Assembly (NCBI GenBank): GCA_964562105.1 | Contig: CAZLRP010000001.1 | Span: forward strand, 2,949 to 66,948 | DNA: 64,000 bases | DNA from: an uncultured Candidatus Saccharibacteria bacterium | GTDB taxonomy: Bacteria; Patescibacteriota; Minisyncoccia; Phycocordibacterales; GWA1-40-21 | Reading direction: 5' to 3' | Shown: positions 5,146-59,014 of the stretch, piece after piece | How the letters are laid out: every line of letters begins with the position of its first letter | Numbering within the stretch: position 1 is the stretch's first letter | Notes under the pieces: generated by a model | The model's database searches: none | What the model was told of the DNA's origin: nothing | What the model saw: the letters and a program-made list of their open reading frames with translations, nothing else | Program-made: the position numbers and the translations under genes

Positions 5146-5180
5146 CAAAGAGCCTTCGCAATAAATTGCGAAGGCTCAAA
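5146..5180 (-). terminator. terminator after the tuf-fusA-inserted hypothetical gene
   Basis: GAGCCTTCGCAATAAATTGCGAAGGCTC. Confidence 0.7.
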
Positions 5181-5194
5181 AGAAATAGGTTTTA

Positions 5195-5869
5195 TTACGG
5201 CATCATACCTTCAAAGATATTTTTGTCTATACTTGACTTCTCAAGTTTATACGTGAAACAAAGAAGGTAGTCATTACTGTCCCAATCATGCCTGGAACAA
5301 ATGGGACGGAATTCAAAGTCATTGTTAGTGCGCGGAACCCATAAAGACGGCATGTTTAAATCAACATCAAAACGATTCCATCGATTCTCCTCATCAAGAG
5401 ATGTATACCAGTGACCTTTAGGCAACTCGTCACGTTTTTGTTCAAAGACAAGTGAGACCCCCTGAACACCTAGAAGAATCGCATTCTTACTTTTAAGAAA
5501 CATCAGACGTTCATCTGATGTTGTTCTACCAGAGATAATTTGTTTCAACACGGAAACATGAAGTTTATCGCCCGGCTTCAAAATCTGAGCCGGGTCGTCA
5601 AACCTATCATCATCAGCAATAAAATCGCTATAGAAAAAAAACTTTTCTTTGTTTTTTTCCTTAAATAACTTTAATCTCGTCTTGTGTTCGTAATCTTTAG
5701 GTACAACAATGACGCCGAGATCTTTTAGAAGAACAAATCTTGGTTTTTGCTCATCTATGATTTTTTGAAAAACATCCGCAACCTTTATTGGGTCACGCTT
5801 CCCATTAAGCACTAAATTGTTAATGGAAGCTTCCAACTTCCACAGTCTTGCAAAAGCATCATTACTCAT
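5195..5869 (-). CDS. hypothetical protein inserted between tuf and fusA
   Basis: 224-aa ORF with its own terminator hairpin at 5146-5180; no recognisable motif; repeat elements lie on both sides. Confidence 0.5.
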   Translation of the reverse strand: MSNDAFARLWKLEASINNLVLNGKRDPIKVADVFQKIIDEQKPRFVLLKDLGVIVVPKDYEHKTRLKLFKEKNKEKFFFYSDFIADDDRFDDPAQILKPGDKLHVSVLKQIISGRTTSDERLMFLKSKNAILLGVQGVSLVFEQKRDELPKGHWYTSLDEENRWNRFDVDLNMPSLWVPRTNNDFEFRPICSRHDWDSNDYLLCFTYKLEKSSIDKNIFEGMMP

Positions 5870-6139: not shown

Positions 6140-8296
6140 TTATTTGCTTTGTGTGCCCCTCACTTCAATAATTTCTTTGGCTACATTAGGAGGTACTATT
6201 TCATAGCTTCCGAATTCCATTGTGGACGAAGCTCTTCCCTCTGAAATTGACCTCAAGGTGGTAACATAACCGAACATTTCAGCAAGAGGAACATTAGCTC
6301 TGATAACTTTATTCATTCCTCTGTCAAACATTTCAGTTATTTGTCCTCTCCTTGAATTGATGCTTCCCGAAACATCTCCCATGAATTTTTCTGGAGTAAC
6401 AACTTCAACTTTCATTACAGGCTCAAGGAGAACCGGTCTTGCTCTTTTTGCCGCATCTTGAAATGCCATGGACGCTGCAATTTTGTAAGCGATTTCTGAC
6501 GAGTCAACATCGTGATATGAACCGTAAGTAAGTTCGCAAGAAATATTTACCATTCTATATCCGGCAATTACTCCTCTTTCCATGCTCTCTTTTACTCCTT
6601 TTTCAACTGCTGGAATAAATTCTTGCGGAATAACTCCTCCTTTAATAGAATCTATAAATTCAAAGTCATCGTATCTGCTAACATTCTTAGGAATTTTCTT
6701 GCCTTCCTCAAGTTTTTGCATCGGCTTAATTTTAATGAGAACGTGACCATATTGTCCTTTTCCTCCAGACTGTTTTATGTATTTTTCTTCTTTTTCAGCT
6801 TCTCCGGTAATTGTTTCTTTGTAAGCAACTTGTGGTTTTCCAACATTTGCTTCAACTCCGAATTCTCTTTTCATTCTGTCTACAAGAATTTCGAGGTGAA
6901 GTTCTCCCATACCTGCCATAACAGTCTCTCCCGTTTCTTGATCCGACTTGATTTTAAATGTTGGGTCTTCATCCGAAAGTTTCTTCAAAGCAAATCCCAT
7001 TTTTTCTTGGTCAGCTTTTGTCTTTGGTTCAATTCTAAGAGTAATAACCGGTTCTGGAAATACAATTTGGTCAAGAATTATCGGATTGGCTTCATCGCAA
7101 AGAGTGTGAGAAGTTTTCGCGTTTTTCAAACCGACAGCCGCCGCAATTTCTCCGGCAAAAACAGTCTCCACTTCTTCTCTGTCATTTGCGTGCATTCTGA
7201 CAATTCTTCCCAATCTTTCCTTTTCTCCGGTTGTTGAATTGTAAATATAAGTTCCCGAAGAAATACTTCCGGAATAAACTCTGAAATATGTAAGCTGTCC
7301 TACAAAAGGATCATTTTGCAATTTAAATGCCAGAGCGCAAAATGGATCTTCATCAGTTGCATGTCTTAAAACTTCTTCTCCATTGTTTGGATTTATTCCT
7401 TTTACTGGTGGAATATCAAGCGGGGAAGGAAGATAGTCAACAACTGCATCAAGTGTGAGTTGAATACCTTTATTTTTCAAAGCCGAACCTGTAAATACAG
7501 GAACAATCGTATTTGCAATGGTTGCTTTTCGGAGAACTGCTTTGAGCTCATCGATGGGAATCTCTTTTCCTTCAAGATAATCGTTCATAAGCTTTTCATC
7601 ATTTTCAGAAATTTTTTCTACAAGCTCAAGCCTGTATTTTTTTGCATTTTCCAAAAGTTCGGCAGGAATTTCTGCTTCTCTGACAACTTCTCCCATTTCG
7701 CCTTCAAAGTAATAGGCCTTCATTTTTAAAAGATCTACTATTCCTGAAAAATCAGATTCTGAACCAATGGGAAGCTGCATTCTTACAGCATGTTTTGTAA
7801 GTCTTTCCAAAATTGATTGAAATGATCTTTCAAAATTTCCTCCTGTTCTATCAAGTTTGTTTATCAAACAAATTCTTGGAACATTTCCTTCGTCAGCATA
7901 TCTCCAGTTTGTTTCTGATTGAGGTTCCACTCCTGCGACTCCGTCAAAAACAACTACGGCTCCGTCAAGAACTCTGAGTGAACGCTTAACCTCTGCGGTA
8001 AAATCAATGTGGCCGGGAGTATCAATGATATTGAATCTTACTTTCTTACTAAAATCGGTTTTTGGCATGTACGAAGGATTCCAAAAACAAGTAATAGCAG
8101 CTGACGTAATGGTAATACCTCTTTCTCTTTCCTGTTCCATCCAGTCGGTCGTAGTTTCTCCTTCGTGAACCTCACCGATATCGTGCTGAGATCCAGTGTA
8201 ATAGAGAATTCTTTCCGATGTGGTTGTTTTTCCGGCATCAATGTGAGCAATGATTCCAAAATTTCTTACTTTTTCTAATGGATAATCTCGTTTCAT
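6140..8296 (-). CDS. fusA: elongation factor G
   Basis: [28 protein letters not shown]; 718 aa EF-G architecture. Confidence 0.97.
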
Positions 8297-11489: not shown

Positions 11490-12365
11490 CTATTTTTCTT
11501 CAATGATAGCCAAACCGCCAGAAATAAAAGAAATGTCTCCTAAATCATAAGTGATTAGCACTTTGCTTTTAATATCATTTAAAAAATCCAATATTTCTTT
11601 GTGTGGATGGCCATAACTATTATTTACTCCCGCAGAAATAACGGAGTATTCTGAATTAACGGCCGATAAAAATTCGGGAGAAAGAGAATTTTTTGACCCA
11701 TGGTGTGCAATTTTCAGCACATCGCTTTTTAATTCTGCTCCATCTGTTTTTGCCAGATATTCTAAAACATCAGTCGGCGCATCCCCAGTGAACATAAAAG
11801 TTGAATCCCCATAATAAAGCTCCGCCACGATAGAATATTTGTTTGTATCAGTTCCTTTTGGATTATTATTCGGATACAAAATTTTTAAATAAGCCCCGCC
11901 GCCAAGATCAAAAATTTTTCCCGTTCTCGCAATTTCTGTTTTTATATTCTTCTCCAAAATTTGATGCTCCAGTTCTTTGAAAGTTCCCGTGCTAGAAGTC
12001 GCTCCACTGCTTATGTATTTTCGAACGGAATAATTTTTAAAAACTTCGGGAATTCCTCCAATATGGTCTTGATCCGGATGAGTCACAAGAATCGCGTCTA
12101 TAGTCTTATCGTAAAAAGGCATTACCCTGCCCAGAGCATTTAAAATATTTTTATCCGGTCCCCCATCTATAAGAAGCTGATTGCCAATTGGCGATTCTAT
12201 AAAAATAGCATCGCCTTGGCCAACATCCAAAAATGAAACTTTTAAAACATTATTCCTGGTTTCGGCTACGACAGTATAAAAAATCATTCCGTTCACAAAA
12301 AGAAGCAGAGCCAAGAAATATATTTTTATTTTATTAAATTTAAACATTTTTTTGTATTGTGTCAT
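11490..12365 (-). CDS. ComEC-related metallo-beta-lactamase-fold domain protein (C-terminal module of ComEC as a separate ORF)
   Basis: LDVGQGDAIFIE...HPDQDHIGG MBL motifs after an N-terminal TM helix; the first ATG lies inside the GIY-YIG element's inverted repeat. Confidence 0.72.
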   Translation of the reverse strand: MTQYKKMFKFNKIKIYFLALLLFVNGMIFYTVVAETRNNVLKVSFLDVGQGDAIFIESPIGNQLLIDGGPDKNILNALGRVMPFYDKTIDAILVTHPDQDHIGGIPEVFKNYSVRKYISSGATSSTGTFKELEHQILEKNIKTEIARTGKIFDLGGGAYLKILYPNNNPKGTDTNKYSIVAELYYGDSTFMFTGDAPTDVLEYLAKTDGAELKSDVLKIAHHGSKNSLSPEFLSAVNSEYSVISAGVNNSYGHPHKEILDFLNDIKSKVLITYDLGDISFISGGLAIIEEK

Positions 12366-12718
12366 TCCCGCGCAGGCGGGAATCCAGTGTTAAATTATAA
12401 TTCTGAACTCAAATCTTTCCATTCTGGATTTTCTTTTTCAATCAACCTTCTTTTCCATAGCCTATTCCATCTTTTTATGCATTTTTCTCTTAATATCGCA
12501 CTTTCTATATCTGTTGTCTGTTCATAATATACAAGAGTTTTAACATTGTATTTTTTAGTAAAACCTTCAACTAAACAATTTTTGTGCTCATATACTCTTC
12601 TCAATAAATCGTTTGTAACTCCGATATACAATGTCCCATCACGCTTACTCGCTAAAATGTAAACATAATAATATTTCATGAAAAGATTATACTGGATTCC
12701 CGCCTTCGCGGGAATGAC
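12361..12718 (-). mobile_element. GIY-YIG family-1 element: 28-bp palindromic hairpins (GTCATTCCCGCGCAGGCGGGAATCCAGT) in inverted orientation flanking a GIY-YIG gene
   Basis: left hairpin 12361-12388, right hairpin 12691-12718; located between the two comEC ORFs. Confidence 0.7.
12395..12679 (-). CDS. GIY-YIG nuclease family protein (URI domain, YhbQ-like)
   Basis: YYVYILASKRDGTLYIGVTNDLLRRVYEH = GIY-YIG motifs; 94 aa; flanked by 28-bp inverted hairpins. Confidence 0.85.
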   Translation of the reverse strand: MKYYYVYILASKRDGTLYIGVTNDLLRRVYEHKNCLVEGFTKKYNVKTLVYYEQTTDIESAILREKCIKRWNRLWKRRLIEKENPEWKDLSSEL

Positions 12719-12723
12719 AAATA

Positions 12724-15546: not shown

Positions 15547-15589
15547 TGAAATGATAATACCATACGTTATACAAAATGAAAAAAGCATT

Positions 15590-15660
15590 GTCATCCCCGC
15601 GGAGGCGGGGATCCAGTATTAAATCAATTCATACTGGATTCCCGTTTTCACGGGAATGAC
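15590..15660. mobile_element. gene-less double-hairpin miniature of the GIY-YIG family-1 element
   Basis: GTCATCCCCGCGGAGGCGGGGATCCAGT + 15-nt spacer + ACTGGATTCCCGTTTTCACGGGAATGAC; same left-end spacer ATTAAAT as in the full element. Confidence 0.65.
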
Positions 15661-15670
15661 AATACAAAAA

Positions 15671-16594: not shown

Positions 16595-16616
16595 ACATAT
16601 GCTCACAAAAAATCAA

Positions 16617-16756
16617 TCCGGGTAGTAGATTTTGACATTAAAATTGTTTTTTGTTAAAACAAGATTTGATATATCTTAAAACAAACCATTATTTAATACT
16701 AACTGCTGTAATATTTAGCTAAATTTTAAAAAACTATGTCAAAATTCACTACCCGG
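16617..16756. mobile_element. MITE-like miniature (about 140 bp) with family-2-type TIRs CCGGGTAGTAGATTTTGACAT / ATGTCAAAATTCACTACCCGG
   Basis: TIRs flank ~95 bp of AT-rich sequence; the right TIR supplies the ATG of the SpoU methyltransferase ORF. Confidence 0.6.
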
Positions 16757-17488
16757 CAAGCAAAACTTATAAAATCTCTGCATGAAAAGAAAAACCGAGC
16801 TCTACTCGGACTATTTTTAGTCGAAGGAGAAAAAAGTGTTTCGGAATTATTAAATTCTGATTTTGAAATAGATTTGTTACTTACGACAACGGAATTTTTT
16901 GATAAGTTTGGAGAAAAAGTAAGAGAAAAATCAAATTTATTTGAAATAGTCAGCCAAATAGAAATAGAAAAAGTTGGGACATTTGAAACAAATGATTCTG
17001 CGCTCGCGGTGGTAAGACAAAAAATAAATAAATCTTTTGAAATTGGAACAAGTAAAATTGTGTTGGCTCTCGATGAAATAAAAGATCCGGGAAATTTGGG
17101 AACAATTATCAGGATTGCCGACTGGTACGGAATAAAAAATATTGTTGCTTCAAAAGAGACGGTTAATTTTTATAATCCAAAAGTTGTCACTGCGACAAAA
17201 GGTTCTTTTTCCAGAGTAAATATATTTTACACTGACCTGAAAGATTTCCTTTCCAAGCAAAAACTGCCGATTTTTGGAGCATTTTTAAATGGTAAAAATA
17301 TTCACGAAACAAAATTTCCTTCTAGCGGAATACTCCTCTTGGGAAATGAATCACACGGCATTAGCAAAGAAATAGAAGATTTAGTTACTGAAAAAATAAC
17401 AATTCCTAAATATGGAGAAACAGAGTCTTTGAACGTCGCGATAGCCACAGCAATAATTCTGGATAATTGGAAAAGGAATTTCTCTTGA
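16736..17488 (+). CDS. SpoU/TrmH family RNA 2'-O-methyltransferase
   Basis: LDEIKDPGNLGTIIRIADWYG, LLGNESHGIS motifs; the start codon lies inside the right terminal inverted repeat of a miniature element. Confidence 0.8.
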   Translation: MSKFTTRQAKLIKSLHEKKNRALLGLFLVEGEKSVSELLNSDFEIDLLLTTTEFFDKFGEKVREKSNLFEIVSQIEIEKVGTFETNDSALAVVRQKINKSFEIGTSKIVLALDEIKDPGNLGTIIRIADWYGIKNIVASKETVNFYNPKVVTATKGSFSRVNIFYTDLKDFLSKQKLPIFGAFLNGKNIHETKFPSSGILLLGNESHGISKEIEDLVTEKITIPKYGETESLNVAIATAIILDNWKRNFS

Positions 17489-38118: not shown

Positions 38119-38464
38119 ATTATTTATTTTTCTTTGGCTTCTTTTTCTCTTTTCTTGAATTGTTCCTATCATTTCCCATAATTTTATTCTATCCGCACAC
38201 TAACTCTATCATTAACAAAAACGAGATGACAGAATTAGTGAGTAGATTAATTAAATTTGCTAATAACAGATTTATTGTACCATAAAAATATGCCCCTTTG
38301 CTATATTATATTTTTATTATAAAATTGTAGCAGAAGTTCATCATATTATTAGAAGAGAGAGGTGATCCGTCCACATCGTTTTTTATGCTATGCAAAAATG
38401 GGGGTGGTAAAAGAAAGGTAATAAAAAGTAGCCAACAAATCCGGTTTTTACCTAAGAGGTAATT

Positions 38465-51195: not shown

Positions 51196-51346
51196 GTCGT
51201 TCCCGCGCAGGCGGGAATCTAGGTTGAGTTCAATTAATTCTGGATTCCCTTCTTACAGAAGCTGTACACCTTTCACATTTTGATTACAAAACGTTCAAGG
51301 TCTTGCGGAAGCAAAAACTTTTGCTTCCTCACCTCCGCGGGAATGA
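51196..51346. mobile_element. family-1 double-hairpin element with ~95-bp internal insert
   Basis: GTCGTTCCCGCGCAGGCGGGAATCTAGG ... CCGCGGGAATGACAG; internal hairpin GGAAGCAAAAACTTTTGCTTCC is related to hairpins at 25132 and 26768. Confidence 0.55.
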
Positions 51347-53775: not shown

Positions 53776-53832
53776 AATTAATGTGATATTTAGTATACAG
53801 TTATAGCATAAGAAAATCAAAAACAAAAAATT

Positions 53833-53903
53833 GTCATTCCCGCGGAGGCGGGAATCCAGTATTAATTCAATTCAACACTAGATTCCCGCCTCCGCGGGAA
53901 TGA
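53833..53903. mobile_element. gene-less double-hairpin miniature of the GIY-YIG family-1 element
   Basis: GTCATTCCCGCGGAGGCGGGAATCCAGT + 18-nt spacer + TAGATTCCCGCCTCCGCGGGAATGAC, between rsmE and clpP. Confidence 0.65.
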
Positions 53904-53974
53904 CACGATAAGATGGTTGCTTTCAATTAATTTTTGATATATCCTTGAATTGTCTTTAATAATTTAATTGGTTA

Positions 53975-55046: not shown

Positions 55047-56576
55047 ATGTCATTAAAAATAGTCGCTCTTATCGCAAGTTTCGTTGGTCTTGTTGGCATT
55101 GCGATAGGATATTTCTTGCGTATCATCATATCACTTGGGAAAAAAGGTTCTGTGGAACTTGAAGTCAGGCAGATGATGCTAAGCGCGGAAGAAAAAGCGA
55201 AAAAAGTCATTATTGATGCAGAAACAAAATCTGTTGAAATAATGAGCGAAGCCAAAAAAGACGTAAGAGAAAAAGAGGAAAAATTTAAAATCACAGAAGA
55301 TCGTTTGATCAAAAAAGACAGTCTTCTTGATCAAAGGCAGATAGATTTAGACAAGGAAACAGAAAATCTCAAAGCAAAACTGGTTGAGATTAAGGATATG
55401 AAAGAAAAAGTGGAAAAAATAGAGGCGCAAAAAAACGTTGAGCTTTTGTCTATTGCAAAAATGTCAGAAGAAGAGGCAAAAAACAATCTTTTCTCGTCTA
55501 TAGAAAAAAAATATTCGGAAGATATTTTAGGAAGAATGAAAAAATTGGAAGAATCTGGAGAGGAACAATTGGAACATAGAGCAAAAGAAATTCTTGCAAC
55601 TTCAATACAGAGATTATCCACTTCGGTTGCTCCAGATATTATGTCCACGATTTTGAGTATCCCCTCAGACGAGATGAAAGGAAAAATTATCGGCAAGGAG
55701 GGAAAAAATATCAAAGCTTTTGAAAGAGTTACTGGTGTTGAGGTTATCGTAGACGATACTCCGGGTATCATTACAATATCCTCGTTTGATCCTATCAGAA
55801 GACAAGTTGCCCGAGTCGCTCTTGAGAATTTACTTCTTGATGGAAGAATCCAGCCGGCAAAAATTGAAAAAATTGTAGAAAAAGCTCAGCAAGATATAAA
55901 TAAAATCATTAAAGAAAAAGGAGAGCAAGCCGCTTATGAATGCGGGGTCATAAATCTAGATTCTAGGGTTATCGCCATTTTAGGAAGATTACATTTTAGA
56001 ACAAGTTATGGACAAAACGTTCTTCAACATTCAATAGAAATGTCTTTGCTTGCCGGAATGATTGCCGAAGAGCTTGGTGCAAATGTACAAGTAGCAAAAA
56101 CTGCGGCTTTGGTACACGATATTGGTAAAGCGCTTGACCACGAGGTTTCAGGAACTCACGTAGAAATCGGTAAAAGAATTCTTCAAAAATTTGGAGTTAG
56201 TGAAAATGTCGTAAAAGCTATGCAATCTCATCATGAAGAGTATCCTTACGAAAGCCTTGAAGCTGTAATAGTTCAAGTGGCTGATACGATTTCGGGTGGA
56301 AGACCTGGCGCTAGAAGCGATAGCATAGAAAATTATTTAAAGAGATTGCAAGAGCTTGAAGCTACAGCAAATTCGTTCAAGGGCGTAGAAAAATCTTACG
56401 CTTTGCAAGCAGGACGAGAAATAAGGGTTTTTGTAACACCGGAACAGATTTCGGATATTGAAGCAAAGGAATTGGCAAGAGATATAGCTGATAAAATTGA
56501 GCAAGATCTAAAATATCCGGGAGAAATAAAAGTTACTCTGATTAGAGAGTCAAGAATCATAGAATATGCCCGGTAG
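55047..56576 (+). CDS. rny: ribonuclease Y
   Basis: N-terminal TM helix, KH domain (IIGKEGKNIKAFE), HD domain (HDIGKA); stop codon lies inside the GIY-YIG element's inverted repeat. Confidence 0.9.
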   Translation: MSLKIVALIASFVGLVGIAIGYFLRIIISLGKKGSVELEVRQMMLSAEEKAKKVIIDAETKSVEIMSEAKKDVREKEEKFKITEDRLIKKDSLLDQRQIDLDKETENLKAKLVEIKDMKEKVEKIEAQKNVELLSIAKMSEEEAKNNLFSSIEKKYSEDILGRMKKLEESGEEQLEHRAKEILATSIQRLSTSVAPDIMSTILSIPSDEMKGKIIGKEGKNIKAFERVTGVEVIVDDTPGIITISSFDPIRRQVARVALENLLLDGRIQPAKIEKIVEKAQQDINKIIKEKGEQAAYECGVINLDSRVIAILGRLHFRTSYGQNVLQHSIEMSLLAGMIAEELGANVQVAKTAALVHDIGKALDHEVSGTHVEIGKRILQKFGVSENVVKAMQSHHEEYPYESLEAVIVQVADTISGGRPGARSDSIENYLKRLQELEATANSFKGVEKSYALQAGREIRVFVTPEQISDIEAKELARDIADKIEQDLKYPGEIKVTLIRESRIIEYAR

Positions 56577-56885
56577 TGAATTTTCAACTCAATTATGTTT
56601 TATGTCTATATTTTACAAAGTAAGGTTAAATTTGACCAATTATATATAGGTTTTACTACAGATCTCAAAAATAGACTAATAAAACATAATCAGAAGTTAA
56701 ATTTTTCTACTAAGACATATGCGCCATACGAGCTTATATATTATGAAGCCTGCAAAGAAGAGTCTGATGCAAGGCGAAGAGAAAATTATCTAAAGACATC
56801 TCAAGGTAGAAGATTGATTAAAAGGCGTATAAAAGACTGGCTGTATATAAGGAAAAATTTAACAAGTTGAAAATCTACTACCGGG
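56569..56885 (+). mobile_element. GIY-YIG family-2 element with 21-bp terminal inverted repeats CCCGGTAGTGAATTTTCAACT / AGTTGAAAATCTACTACCGGG
   Basis: the left TIR contains the rny TAG stop; the right TIR contains the GIY-YIG gene's TGA stop. Confidence 0.7.
56595..56870 (+). CDS. GIY-YIG nuclease family protein
   Basis: FYVYILQSKVKFDQLYIGFTTDLKNRLIKHN GIY-YIG motifs; flanked by 21-bp terminal inverted repeats. Confidence 0.85.
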   Translation: MFYVYILQSKVKFDQLYIGFTTDLKNRLIKHNQKLNFSTKTYAPYELIYYEACKEESDARRRENYLKTSQGRRLIKRRIKDWLYIRKNLTS

Positions 56886-56928
56886 TATGCGAGATAATTA
56901 TTGAAAAAACATAAAATAATAAATAAAA

Positions 56929-56961
56929 TAAGGGTTTTCGCTTCGCGAAAACCCTTATTTT
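56929..56961 (+). terminator. terminator after the GIY-YIG family-2 element; same conserved core
   Basis: AAGGGTTTTCGCTTCGCGAAAACCCTTATTTT. Confidence 0.75.
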
Positions 56962-57140
56962 ATTTATTATTACACACCACATTCTAAATAGCGTCTACTG
57001 ATTCCCTCTATTGCGCTTTAATAGCAAGGTATTATAATACTGAACAGGTCACCAAATCTTTTATGTGTAGGGAAAGCACAGAAAAGTTTTAAAAGCTTCG
57101 CGTGTCCGGACCTGATATGCGAAATAATTTGCAAATTATT

Positions 57141-58471: not shown

Positions 58472-58684
58472 ATTTGGATGATATCATAAAATTCGTAAAA
58501 ATTCATTTGAGTAAATACTTTCAATTAACACTTTCCATCGCAGGGGCAGAAATTTTCTTGCTACGCCCGCACAAATTTAAAAAACTCAAGATTTCTCTTG
58601 AGCTTTTTAAATTTGTGCGGGCAGGGTGAATCGGACACCCGACCGAAGTTTGGAAAACTTCTGTTTTACCACTAAACTATGCCC

Positions 58685-58814
58685 GCCCGGTAGTAGATTT
58701 TGACATCAAAAAATATTTTTAATCAAAATATACCTACTAAGTTCGTTGCTTTAAGGGTCAAATAGTTTTATATGTGAGACTAGCCAAAAGCTAATGTCAA
58801 AATTCACTACCGGG
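58685..58814. mobile_element. MITE-like miniature with family-2-type TIRs
   Basis: CCCGGTAGTAGATTTTGACAT ... ATGTCAAAATTCACTACCGGG with an ~88-bp internal segment. Confidence 0.6.
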
Positions 58815-58864
58815 CCCGCATTAGAAAAGAACGCTGTAATACTAGCAAAAATATCAAATAGAGG

Positions 58865-59014
58865 CAATTTATCCGCACACTAACATTGTCATTATTGCCT
58901 GTGTTTTTTAGATATAATTAATTAAGCAACTTGTATTCTGAAAAAATCAGATTTGTTAATATAATTTTGACAAGCAATAAAAACACAATGACAATGTTAG
59001 TGTGCGGATTTATT
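58865..59014. repeat. long inverted repeat (about 30-bp arms AATTTATCCGCACACTAACATTGTCATTATTGC) around ~75 bp
   Basis: arms at 58865-58897 and 58974-59014; a partial copy ATCCGCACACTAAC at 38190-38203. Confidence 0.6.

Follow-up and report, generated by a model that had tools for sequence, protein, structure and literature searches.

A family of small inverted-repeat elements at gene boundaries in candidate-phyla-radiation bacteria, some carrying a GIY-YIG nuclease gene

Endonucleases of the SsnA type are site-specific and confined to single-stranded DNA, which they cleave beside a hairpin repeat termed NTS/SRM (Chenal et al., Nat Commun 2025, PMC11893778). Most members of the Ssn family are flanked by such repeats, an Ssn-family nuclease binds its flanking repeats in vitro, and the authors likened the layout to an insertion sequence and to REP/RAYT (PMC11893778). 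In Neisseria, SsnA/NTS was proposed to modulate transformation or recombination, and the wider GIY-YIG superfamily includes homing endonucleases (PMC11893778). Here we describe a comparable arrangement in a 64,000-nt stretch of DNA from an uncultured Candidatus Saccharibacteria bacterium (the window; 34% G+C; all coordinates are positions within it), whose nearest relatives carry source names of Paceibacterota, Minisyncoccia or Patescibacteria. Its centre is element B, a 317-bp unit (56569-56885) at the 3' end of the RNase Y gene, rny, whose sole gene encodes a GIY-YIG nuclease of 91 aa. That element B represents an insertion-competent family with ∼4-bp duplications, target preferences, survival at gene boundaries, codon-supplying ends and a conserved nuclease is held here with high confidence. 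The explanation that we favour as a whole, with moderate confidence, is that of a minimal mobile or recently mobile nuclease-repeat element, which inserts with duplications and would be moved by its own nuclease.

Element B and its gene-less relatives in the window

Element B is bounded by terminal inverted repeats at 56569-56589 (CCCGGTAGTGAATTTTCAACT, a GTGAA-type arm) and 56865-56885 (AGTTGAAAATCTACTACCGGG, a GTAGA-type arm), which are complementary at 19 of 21 positions. Between them the nuclease gene (56595-56870, forward strand) encodes a single-domain protein, in which the match to PF01541 spans residues 1-71 (E 1.2e-14) and a Pfam search found no second domain. The ATG of the gene stands 26 nt in from the left end of the element and its TGA (56868-56870) lies within the right repeat, while the left repeat holds the final 8 nt of rny (CC CGG TAG), including the stop codon at 56574-56576. 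The original prediction that inverted repeats flank this gene, and that each contains one of the two stop codons, was therefore correct. It had also proposed a second, different GIY-YIG element; the element is indeed distinct, although its architecture is not new in kind and parallels the published units of an Ssn nuclease with flanking repeats.

The rny gene (55047-56576, forward strand) encodes a protein of 509 aa, within the range of its orthologues, all of which have 508-509 aa. Its last two codons and stop come from the left repeat and its …IEYAR ending is unchanged, such that the end of element B has rebuilt Ala-Arg-stop without altering the sequence of RNase Y. A tetranucleotide, TATG, precedes the element (56565-56568) and recurs directly after it at the head of a fossil rny end (56886-56897, forward strand; TATG CG AGA TAA, for …Y A R stop), which is now untranslated. 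Further downstream lies an intrinsic-terminator-like hairpin with a 20-bp stem (56922-56964, forward strand). As the equivalent hairpin in a relative (L117) directly follows rny, the insertion has put the nuclease gene downstream of the stop codon of rny but ahead of its terminator, a position within the rny transcription unit.

Two gene-less elements have arms of the same kind. Element A (16618-16756, 139 bp) has a GTAGA-type arm at 16618-16638, a GTGAA-type arm at 16736-16756 and an AT-rich interior. Element C (58686-58814, 129 bp) adjoins an intact tRNA-Gly (tcc) gene (58615-58686, reverse strand), the 5' end of which forms its left junction. Both elements had been predicted, with starts one base too far to the left (16617 and 58685), and element C begins with CCCGG rather than with CCGGG as was proposed. 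The terminal repeat common to the three elements is CCSGGTAGT(AGA/GAA)TTTT…, and in each element one arm is of the GTAGA and the other of the GTGAA type; the two positions at which the arms mismatch recur throughout the family and are not noise. A search of the window with the 16-nt core pattern, allowing at most two mismatches, returned exactly the six arms of elements A, B and C, compared with a mean of 0.46 matches in shuffled sequence, where none of 100 shuffles reached six; the similarity of the repeats thus holds up against shuffled sequence. Direct repeats of 3-4 bp are found at the junctions of all three elements, TATG for B, CCCG for C (58682-58685 and 58815-58818) and CAA(T/G) for A. 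These, with the uninterrupted sites of syntenic relatives described below, uphold the earlier description of the elements as resembling miniature inverted-repeat transposable elements (MITEs). Elements A and C are gene-less members of the element B repeat family.

Empty sites and displaced gene ends

Relatives in which the B and C sites are empty share the gene order ClpP-rny-HU-…-kinase-tRNA-Gly-RNHCP-NAD kinase. In three of them (L117, L119 and L121), with rny 88-92% identical to that of the window, the 3' end of the gene is uninterrupted (GAATACGCAAGATAA, GAATACGCGCGTTAA and GAATACGCAAGGTAA, respectively), the empty target being ATAGAATAYGCNAGATAA with TACG as the single copy of the duplicated bases; the window reads TATG, the element and then TATGCGAGATAA. 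Similarly, the 5' end of tRNA-Gly reads …CTAYGCCCGC followed by ATAYGAAAGAACGCTGT in L117 and L119, and …CCCG, element C and CCCGCATTAGAAAAGAACGCTGT in the window. Comparison of the rny 3' end and the TrmH 5' end with relatives, the check put forward with the original prediction, thus yielded empty sites for elements B and A.

Besides the window, eight other lineages have an element at the rny site, with rny genes 51-84% identical to that of the window; in the closest relatives (88-92%) the site is empty. Every occupied junction reads GAR TWY G/CC CGG TAG (the slash marks the insertion point), preserving the protein ending …(E)(Y/F)AR. The old rny end persists untranslated to the right as TAYGCNAGATAA in six of the nine occupied lineages, and these six fossils differ from one another by synonymous changes only, a pattern that favours recent insertion on several occasions over a single ancient event. 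At two rny 3' ends (L079, 3070-3400; L088, 3977-4310) a second arm of the same family directly follows the first element, which looks like tandem or nested re-insertion into the target that the first insertion had regenerated. Occupation of the same conserved-gene site, the last codons of rny, in many diverged genomes would also suit a free-standing homing endonuclease gene that cuts the empty rny allele and is copied in by double-strand-break repair, an activity for which the GIY-YIG superfamily offers precedents (PMC11893778). Homing proceeds without target duplication, yet duplications are the rule in the element B family, which in addition has dozens of different insertion sites and gene-less copies with the same ends; nor is there a DNA-binding domain besides the 91-aa catalytic domain. 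A homing gene is thus a very improbable explanation.

Element A interrupts the gene for a TrmH/SpoU-family RNA methyltransferase (16736-17488, forward strand), the first seven codons of which (MSKFTTR) lie within the right repeat of the element. A stump of the original start remains on the other side (16599-16625, forward strand; ATG CTC ACA AAA AAT CAA TCC GGG TAG, encoding MLTKNQSG and a stop), where the reading frame of MLTKNQ (16599-16616) ends at the left-repeat TAG. The empty 5' end in L116 reads ATG TTC ACG AAA AAC CAA GCA AAA; the window has ATG CTC ACA AAA AAT CAA T, the element and then CAA GCA AAA. Among the 118 full-length orthologues listed, 116 begin with M(F/L)TKNQAKLIKSL or a close variant, and the N-terminus MSKFTTRQAKLIKSL is confined to the window protein and one other (P0122, 83% identical). 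Given the MLTKNQ stump to the left of the element and the starts of these 116 orthologues, element A has split TrmH after codon 6, the CAA of which was duplicated.

The ATG at 16736 is the first in-frame TrmH start after a stop. It had been predicted to be the sole available start, with no other in-frame ATG, GTG or TTG for about 100 codons. The latter statement is incorrect, as a TTG occurs at codon 47 and a GTG at codon 92, but a protein started at either would lack the greater part of PF22435, the conserved substrate-binding domain at the N-terminus (residues 9-91), and the conclusion that the repeat supplies the start therefore stands: the arm ATG is the only start that preserves this domain. 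The view that the element was co-opted to provide a translation start is borne out by the original start that is still present to its left and by the replaced N-terminus of the window protein. The N-termini in related genomes, which might have spoken against co-option, favour it, since the 116 orthologues start with M(F/L)TKNQ, unlike the MSKFTTRQ of the window. Gene starts within repeats, such as that of TrmH, are real and should not be ‘corrected' in annotation, and N-termini may differ among close relatives owing to repeat-encoded starts. The idea that element A also brought a promoter for the TrmH gene was unsupported, as a promoter scan around the element showed nothing above shuffled expectation.

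The family in other genomes

A scan for the 21-nt degenerate repeat alone, in one genome per species (185,579 species genomes), returned 34 loci, 19 of which held 20 paired arms of the element A/B/C family. The source titles of these loci include Paceibacterota, Parcubacteria, Saccharibacteria, Vogelbacteria, Zambryskibacteria and Taylorbacteria, and the paired-arm elements measure 65-141 bp if gene-less and 317 bp if they carry a gene. Single-arm matches came mostly from genomes outside the candidate phyla radiation, at about chance level, and viral contigs gave one isolated repeat match and no sign of a phage-borne family. The nuclease itself has 526 homologues at 60-84% identity, nearly all of 88-91 aa, and more than 580 stretches of metagenome contigs encode a related protein. 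Context was assessed in 80 of these metagenome loci, of Paceibacterota type, where 69 of ∼90 copies of the gene lie between both arms. Gene-carrying elements are mostly 303-320 bp long. In 32 of 52 of them the nuclease ATG stands 26 nt in from the left end; the stop codon is 15-25 nt from the right end, mostly inside the arm, which encodes the C-terminus of the protein (…KNLTS, …KNLTN or, by read-through, …NQKFTTG). Tyr5, Tyr17, Arg27, His31 and Glu63 are invariant and of the GIY-YIG catalytic type. The open reading frame (ORF) is intact in 46 of the 52 gene-sized elements and pairwise ratios of nonsynonymous to synonymous change (dN/dS) are about 0.08-0.27, indicating that the gene is under purifying selection. 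In the gene-sized elements of L055, L056, L058, L082, L085 and L110 the arms are intact and the nuclease ORF is in fragments of 11-31 codons; these are decaying copies that retain their ends.

Terminal inverted repeats with a short duplication of fixed length are the classic signature of DDE transposition. As the family has such repeats and a duplication of ∼4 bp, and as its gene-less copies outnumber the gene-carrying ones in the repeat-only scan, the elements could be ordinary MITEs, their repeats being the ends of a DDE-type insertion sequence acting in trans and the GIY-YIG gene mere cargo. The candidate-phyla-radiation loci speak against this model. Neither the repeat-only scan nor the 8-kb loci around its matches contained an arm pair enclosing more than ∼320 bp or a DDE-type transposase partner with the same ends, and the only coding form of the repeat family, in these loci and in the gene loci, carries the GIY-YIG gene. 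In dozens of diverged lineages this gene fits the element exactly, its stop codon falling within the repeat; the C-terminus of its product varies in step with the repeat, and the gene is subject to purifying selection. Furthermore, genes of the sister Ssn family likewise lie between repeats, which are of unrelated sequence and are bound by the nuclease in vitro (PMC11893778). Mobilization by a DDE enzyme in trans is, on balance, quite unlikely.

Insertion itself is supported by the junctions. An exact direct repeat of at least 3 bp is present in 58 of 75 non-redundant elements and measures exactly 4 bp, the mode, in 41, compared with 7 of 300 displaced right-flank controls. In L018 two gene-less copies 2.4 kb apart (5173-5296 and 7651-7775) have interiors that are 87% identical and duplications that differ, the appearance expected of transposed copies and the clearest indication of recent transposition. 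Actual insertion of an Ssn-type unit, which the Ssn paper raises only by analogy, is supported by the target duplications, by the empty sites and by the occurrence of near-identical copies at more than one site. These observations also bear on a domesticated host system, in which the nuclease and its dispersed repeats would be kept, for example, for cutting incoming or replicating single-stranded DNA or for modulating transformation or recombination, the insertions being old and immobile. Such a system is consistent with the strong purifying selection on the nuclease, with the almost perfect conservation, from Saccharibacteria- to Paceibacterota-labelled groups, of the 16 outermost nt of the repeats while interiors vary freely, and with the function demonstrated for SsnA (PMC11893778). 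It is nevertheless unlikely in view of the patchy presence of the elements among relatives with 88-92% identical rny, the L018 pair, the tandem re-insertions in L079 and L088, and the untranslated fossil rny ends, whose synonymous-only differences point to recent, repeated insertion; a host function would, moreover, be compatible with mobility rather than exclusive of it.

The family survives almost only at gene boundaries, and its target preferences are strong: TAYG/C at the last rny codons for one subtype, and A/TGRA at start codons for another. In the latter, T-type, elements the arms begin with TCCCG or TCCTG and the duplication is TGAA or TGGA, preceded by A. The host start codon consists of the last repeat base and the TG of the duplication in 31 T-type elements, a terminal A or G of the repeat completing the ATG or GTG of the downstream gene. 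Several lie on ATGA stop/start overlaps (L053 and L055), where both neighbouring genes are intact. In 14 elements the left copy of the host ATG opens a mini-ORF of seven codons that ends 6-7 nt before the nuclease ATG, a geometry which suggests that the nuclease, and then the host gene, may be translated by coupling. In gene-less elements of the GACAT type the arm reads outward as ATG TCA AAA TTC ACT ACC SGG, and its ATG opens a long host ORF in seven such elements, including that of TrmH in the window, while in ∼12 elements the arm TAG closes a long incoming ORF. Because the ends carry TAG and ATG, or a terminal A or G that completes ATG or GTG, a stop remains for the upstream gene and a start for the downstream gene. 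In a compact genome with hardly any spare DNA, elements thus stand on start and stop codons with ends that carry the codons needed to keep both neighbours working.

When the arms of 65 distinct elements were aligned as the two sides of one stem, standard pairs occupied 92.5% of cells and changes on both sides were evident in 15 of 21 arm pairs, including pair 1:56, which covaries; neither shuffles nor slid registers approach these values. All 65 have A·C at position 10:47 and G·T at position 11:46, and exactly one AGA arm and one GAA arm are present in 73 of 75 elements. Covariation around an invariant non-Watson-Crick step is what would be expected if a protein reads the DNA as a folded single strand; a pair of double-stranded binding sites that co-evolve, one at each end and distinct from one another, could in principle leave the same pattern. 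The shortest forms (65-77 nt) fold as the outer stem with two small GC-rich hairpins (DNA folding z-scores −7 to −14), the sequences of which vary from copy to copy. The inner hairpins derive from single-sequence folds, and MAFFT/RNAalifold recovered only the outer stem because the two hairpins differ in length. In these forms (for example L034, 2586-2653, and L035, 7250-7317) each half consists of GACATT and then a small GC-rich hairpin; this resembles the GTCATT-hairpin layout of NTS and may link the two repeat families.

The stem covariation, together with UUCG- or GNRA-like loops in the internal hairpins of some short forms, would also be expected of a structured RNA, the paired arms and three-way-junction short forms then being a small non-coding RNA, an mRNA-processing element or a terminator rather than mobile DNA. 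A search of the window and of 13 loci with short forms against Rfam, at gathering thresholds, returned tRNAs only, with no match to the elements. The internal loops are not strand-consistent, the elements occur in both orientations relative to the neighbouring genes and overlap coding ends, and insertion at the DNA level is evident from target duplications and empty sites. An RNA identity for the elements is accordingly highly unlikely, but they may have side effects at the RNA level, such as altered processing or stability.

Nuclease kinship, mechanism and comparison with known systems

The window itself contains a canonical Ssn-type unit (12360-12719), in which a GIY-YIG gene (12404-12679, reverse strand) is flanked by inverted TGTCATTCCCGCG…GCGGGAATCCAG hairpin repeats (TGTCATTCCCGCGCAGGCGGGAATCCAG). 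Both repeats match the published SRM motif, HGTCWYN(0-2)YYVSBRHN(0-5)WNVSBRGN(0-2)RNCYNB, each copy of which is a hairpin (PMC11893778). The element B nuclease is 38% identical to this SRM-flanked protein over its full length (E 3e-11), and a profile of its clade scores the protein at 56 bits, compared with 27 bits for UPF0213 BH0048 (1zg2) and 24 bits for SLX1. Judged through the SRM-flanked protein, as a proxy for a BLASTP match to N. meningitidis SsnA (E<1e-10, 75% coverage) or assignment to CDD cd10448, the element B nuclease appears to be related to the Ssn family of site-specific single-stranded-DNA endonucleases. NCBIfam holds no family for it, and the PDB contains no close solved relative, with marginal matches to UPF0213 and SLX1 only, equally for both GIY-YIG proteins of the window. 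Gene-less NTS/SRM-type hairpins occur at 15586-15663 and 53832-53905 (inverted pairs of ∼70 bp) and at 51199-51218 (a single copy), and the window contains seven sites resembling ATTCCCGC-N4-GCGGGAAT, where 0.01 would be expected; the gene-less hairpins showed no clear target duplication. A third, unrelated miniature (58873-59007) with perfect 21-bp inverted repeats (CCGCACACTAACATTGTCATT) lies between the tRNA-Gly and RNHCP genes, is absent from the same spacer in L117 and L119, and has a shorter relative near 38191-38250.

In the mechanism that we propose for a mobile element moved by its own nuclease, both arms would pair in single-stranded DNA into a stem with the invariant A·C/G·T step, which the nuclease would recognize by analogy with Ssn proteins and their flanking hairpin repeats. 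Cleavage would then drive the movement of gene-carrying and gene-less copies alike, strand joining being left to host functions, and the nuclease would be expressed through read-through and translational coupling from the host gene upstream. Self-mobilization of this kind is a finely balanced proposal, and if the nuclease does drive movement the chemistry of transposition would be new and the element the smallest self-contained mobile element. A bolder version, which is doubtful, treats the ∼315-bp unit as an autonomous transposon specialized for ultra-compact genomes, with the 91-aa GIY-YIG hydrolase as transposase and the paired arms as a folded single-strand intermediate. Such a transposon would home to gene boundaries (the last rny codons, ATGRA starts and a tRNA 5' end), re-encode the displaced stop or start and borrow host translation signals through coupled mini-ORFs. 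If true, all other known autonomous DNA transposons would be far larger, and its nuclease would define a new transposase class.

Several observations weigh against the favoured explanation. To our knowledge, a 91-aa hydrolytic GIY-YIG enzyme has no strand-joining activity, and we know of no characterized GIY-YIG enzyme that makes a 4-nt staggered cut. Single arms form no hairpins of their own, the two pairing instead across the gene, and none of the 75 elements of the A/B/C family matches the SRM motif, which both flanks of the 12404-12679 gene do. Lineages differ in which side of the gene has the AGA arm and which the GAA arm, with the orientation of the gene always matching the host target, a behaviour that a simple model of one-strand recognition does not predict. 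When the miniature interiors were compared with the nuclease gene by blastn-short and tblastx, the matches were confined to short AT-rich words, with E 0.003 or worse, such that there is no detectable kinship and descent by internal deletion is unsupported. Similarity between the interiors of elements A and C is not beyond chance, and the inner part of the repeat is GACAT in these two elements and CAACT in element B. Finally, the terminal A of T-type elements may be part of the duplication and not of the repeat; attributing the A of ATG to the element is the more parsimonious reading, supported by the covariation of pair 1:56, but it is not proven.

Among described elements, the Correia elements of Neisseria and the palindromic elements of Rickettsia resemble the gene-less copies in their size (65-140 bp), terminal inverted repeats, short target duplications, long hairpin folds and insertion beside or into genes, the ends of which they alter. 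Unlike bacterial MITEs, the only coding member of the element B family specifies a GIY-YIG nuclease and not a DDE transposase, the interiors of the copies are largely unrelated, and the in-frame stop and start codons of the ends are used repeatedly. REP/BIME-RAYT and IS200/IS605 systems likewise consist of a small nuclease-type gene flanked by inverted copies of a palindromic repeat that is dispersed in the genome, and recognition of folded single-stranded DNA is presumed in both cases. Those systems, however, use an HUH/Y1 transposase with a covalent intermediate, while the sole ORF of element B encodes a GIY-YIG hydrolase. IS200/IS605 elements, in addition, create no target duplication, in contrast to the element B family. 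Use of the conserved end of an essential gene (rny) or of a tRNA gene as a target, with the product left intact, recalls Tn7 at attTn7 behind glmS and the integrative elements that rebuild tRNA genes. In contrast to such safe-harbour insertion, element B is inserted within the coding sequence, at a point 7 nt upstream of the stop codon, its end re-encodes Ala-Arg-stop, and the whole unit is ∼317 bp with one 91-aa protein.

The closest parallel remains the Ssn family. A search of the literature on GIY-YIG transposons, target duplications and MITEs in Patescibacteria found nothing beyond the Ssn paper. Both families have a single-domain GIY-YIG protein of ∼90 aa (91 aa in element B), and in both the gene stands between inverted copies of a repeat, further copies of which are dispersed through the genome without it. 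They differ in that the repeat of the element B family is unrelated to SRM, with arms that pair across the gene instead of each forming a hairpin. The main text of the Ssn paper is also without target duplications, empty sites, a preference for gene boundaries, end-supplied codons and MITEs, all of which the element B family has, and without hosts from the candidate phyla radiation, to which the hosts of the element B family belong. Several features appear to be undescribed: a different repeat whose copies pair across the gene, clear target duplications with matching empty sites, miniatures that are AT-rich or form a three-way junction, the use of start and stop codons as safe harbours for insertion, and the dependence of a host gene on a start codon encoded by a repeat. 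The new pairing of repeat and nuclease, with its invariant mismatch signature, could widen the set of sequence-specific cutters of single-stranded DNA that are of interest as tools. Taken together, the sequence comparisons are consistent with the element B family being an Ssn-like nuclease with flanking repeats, distinguished from the described family by these features.

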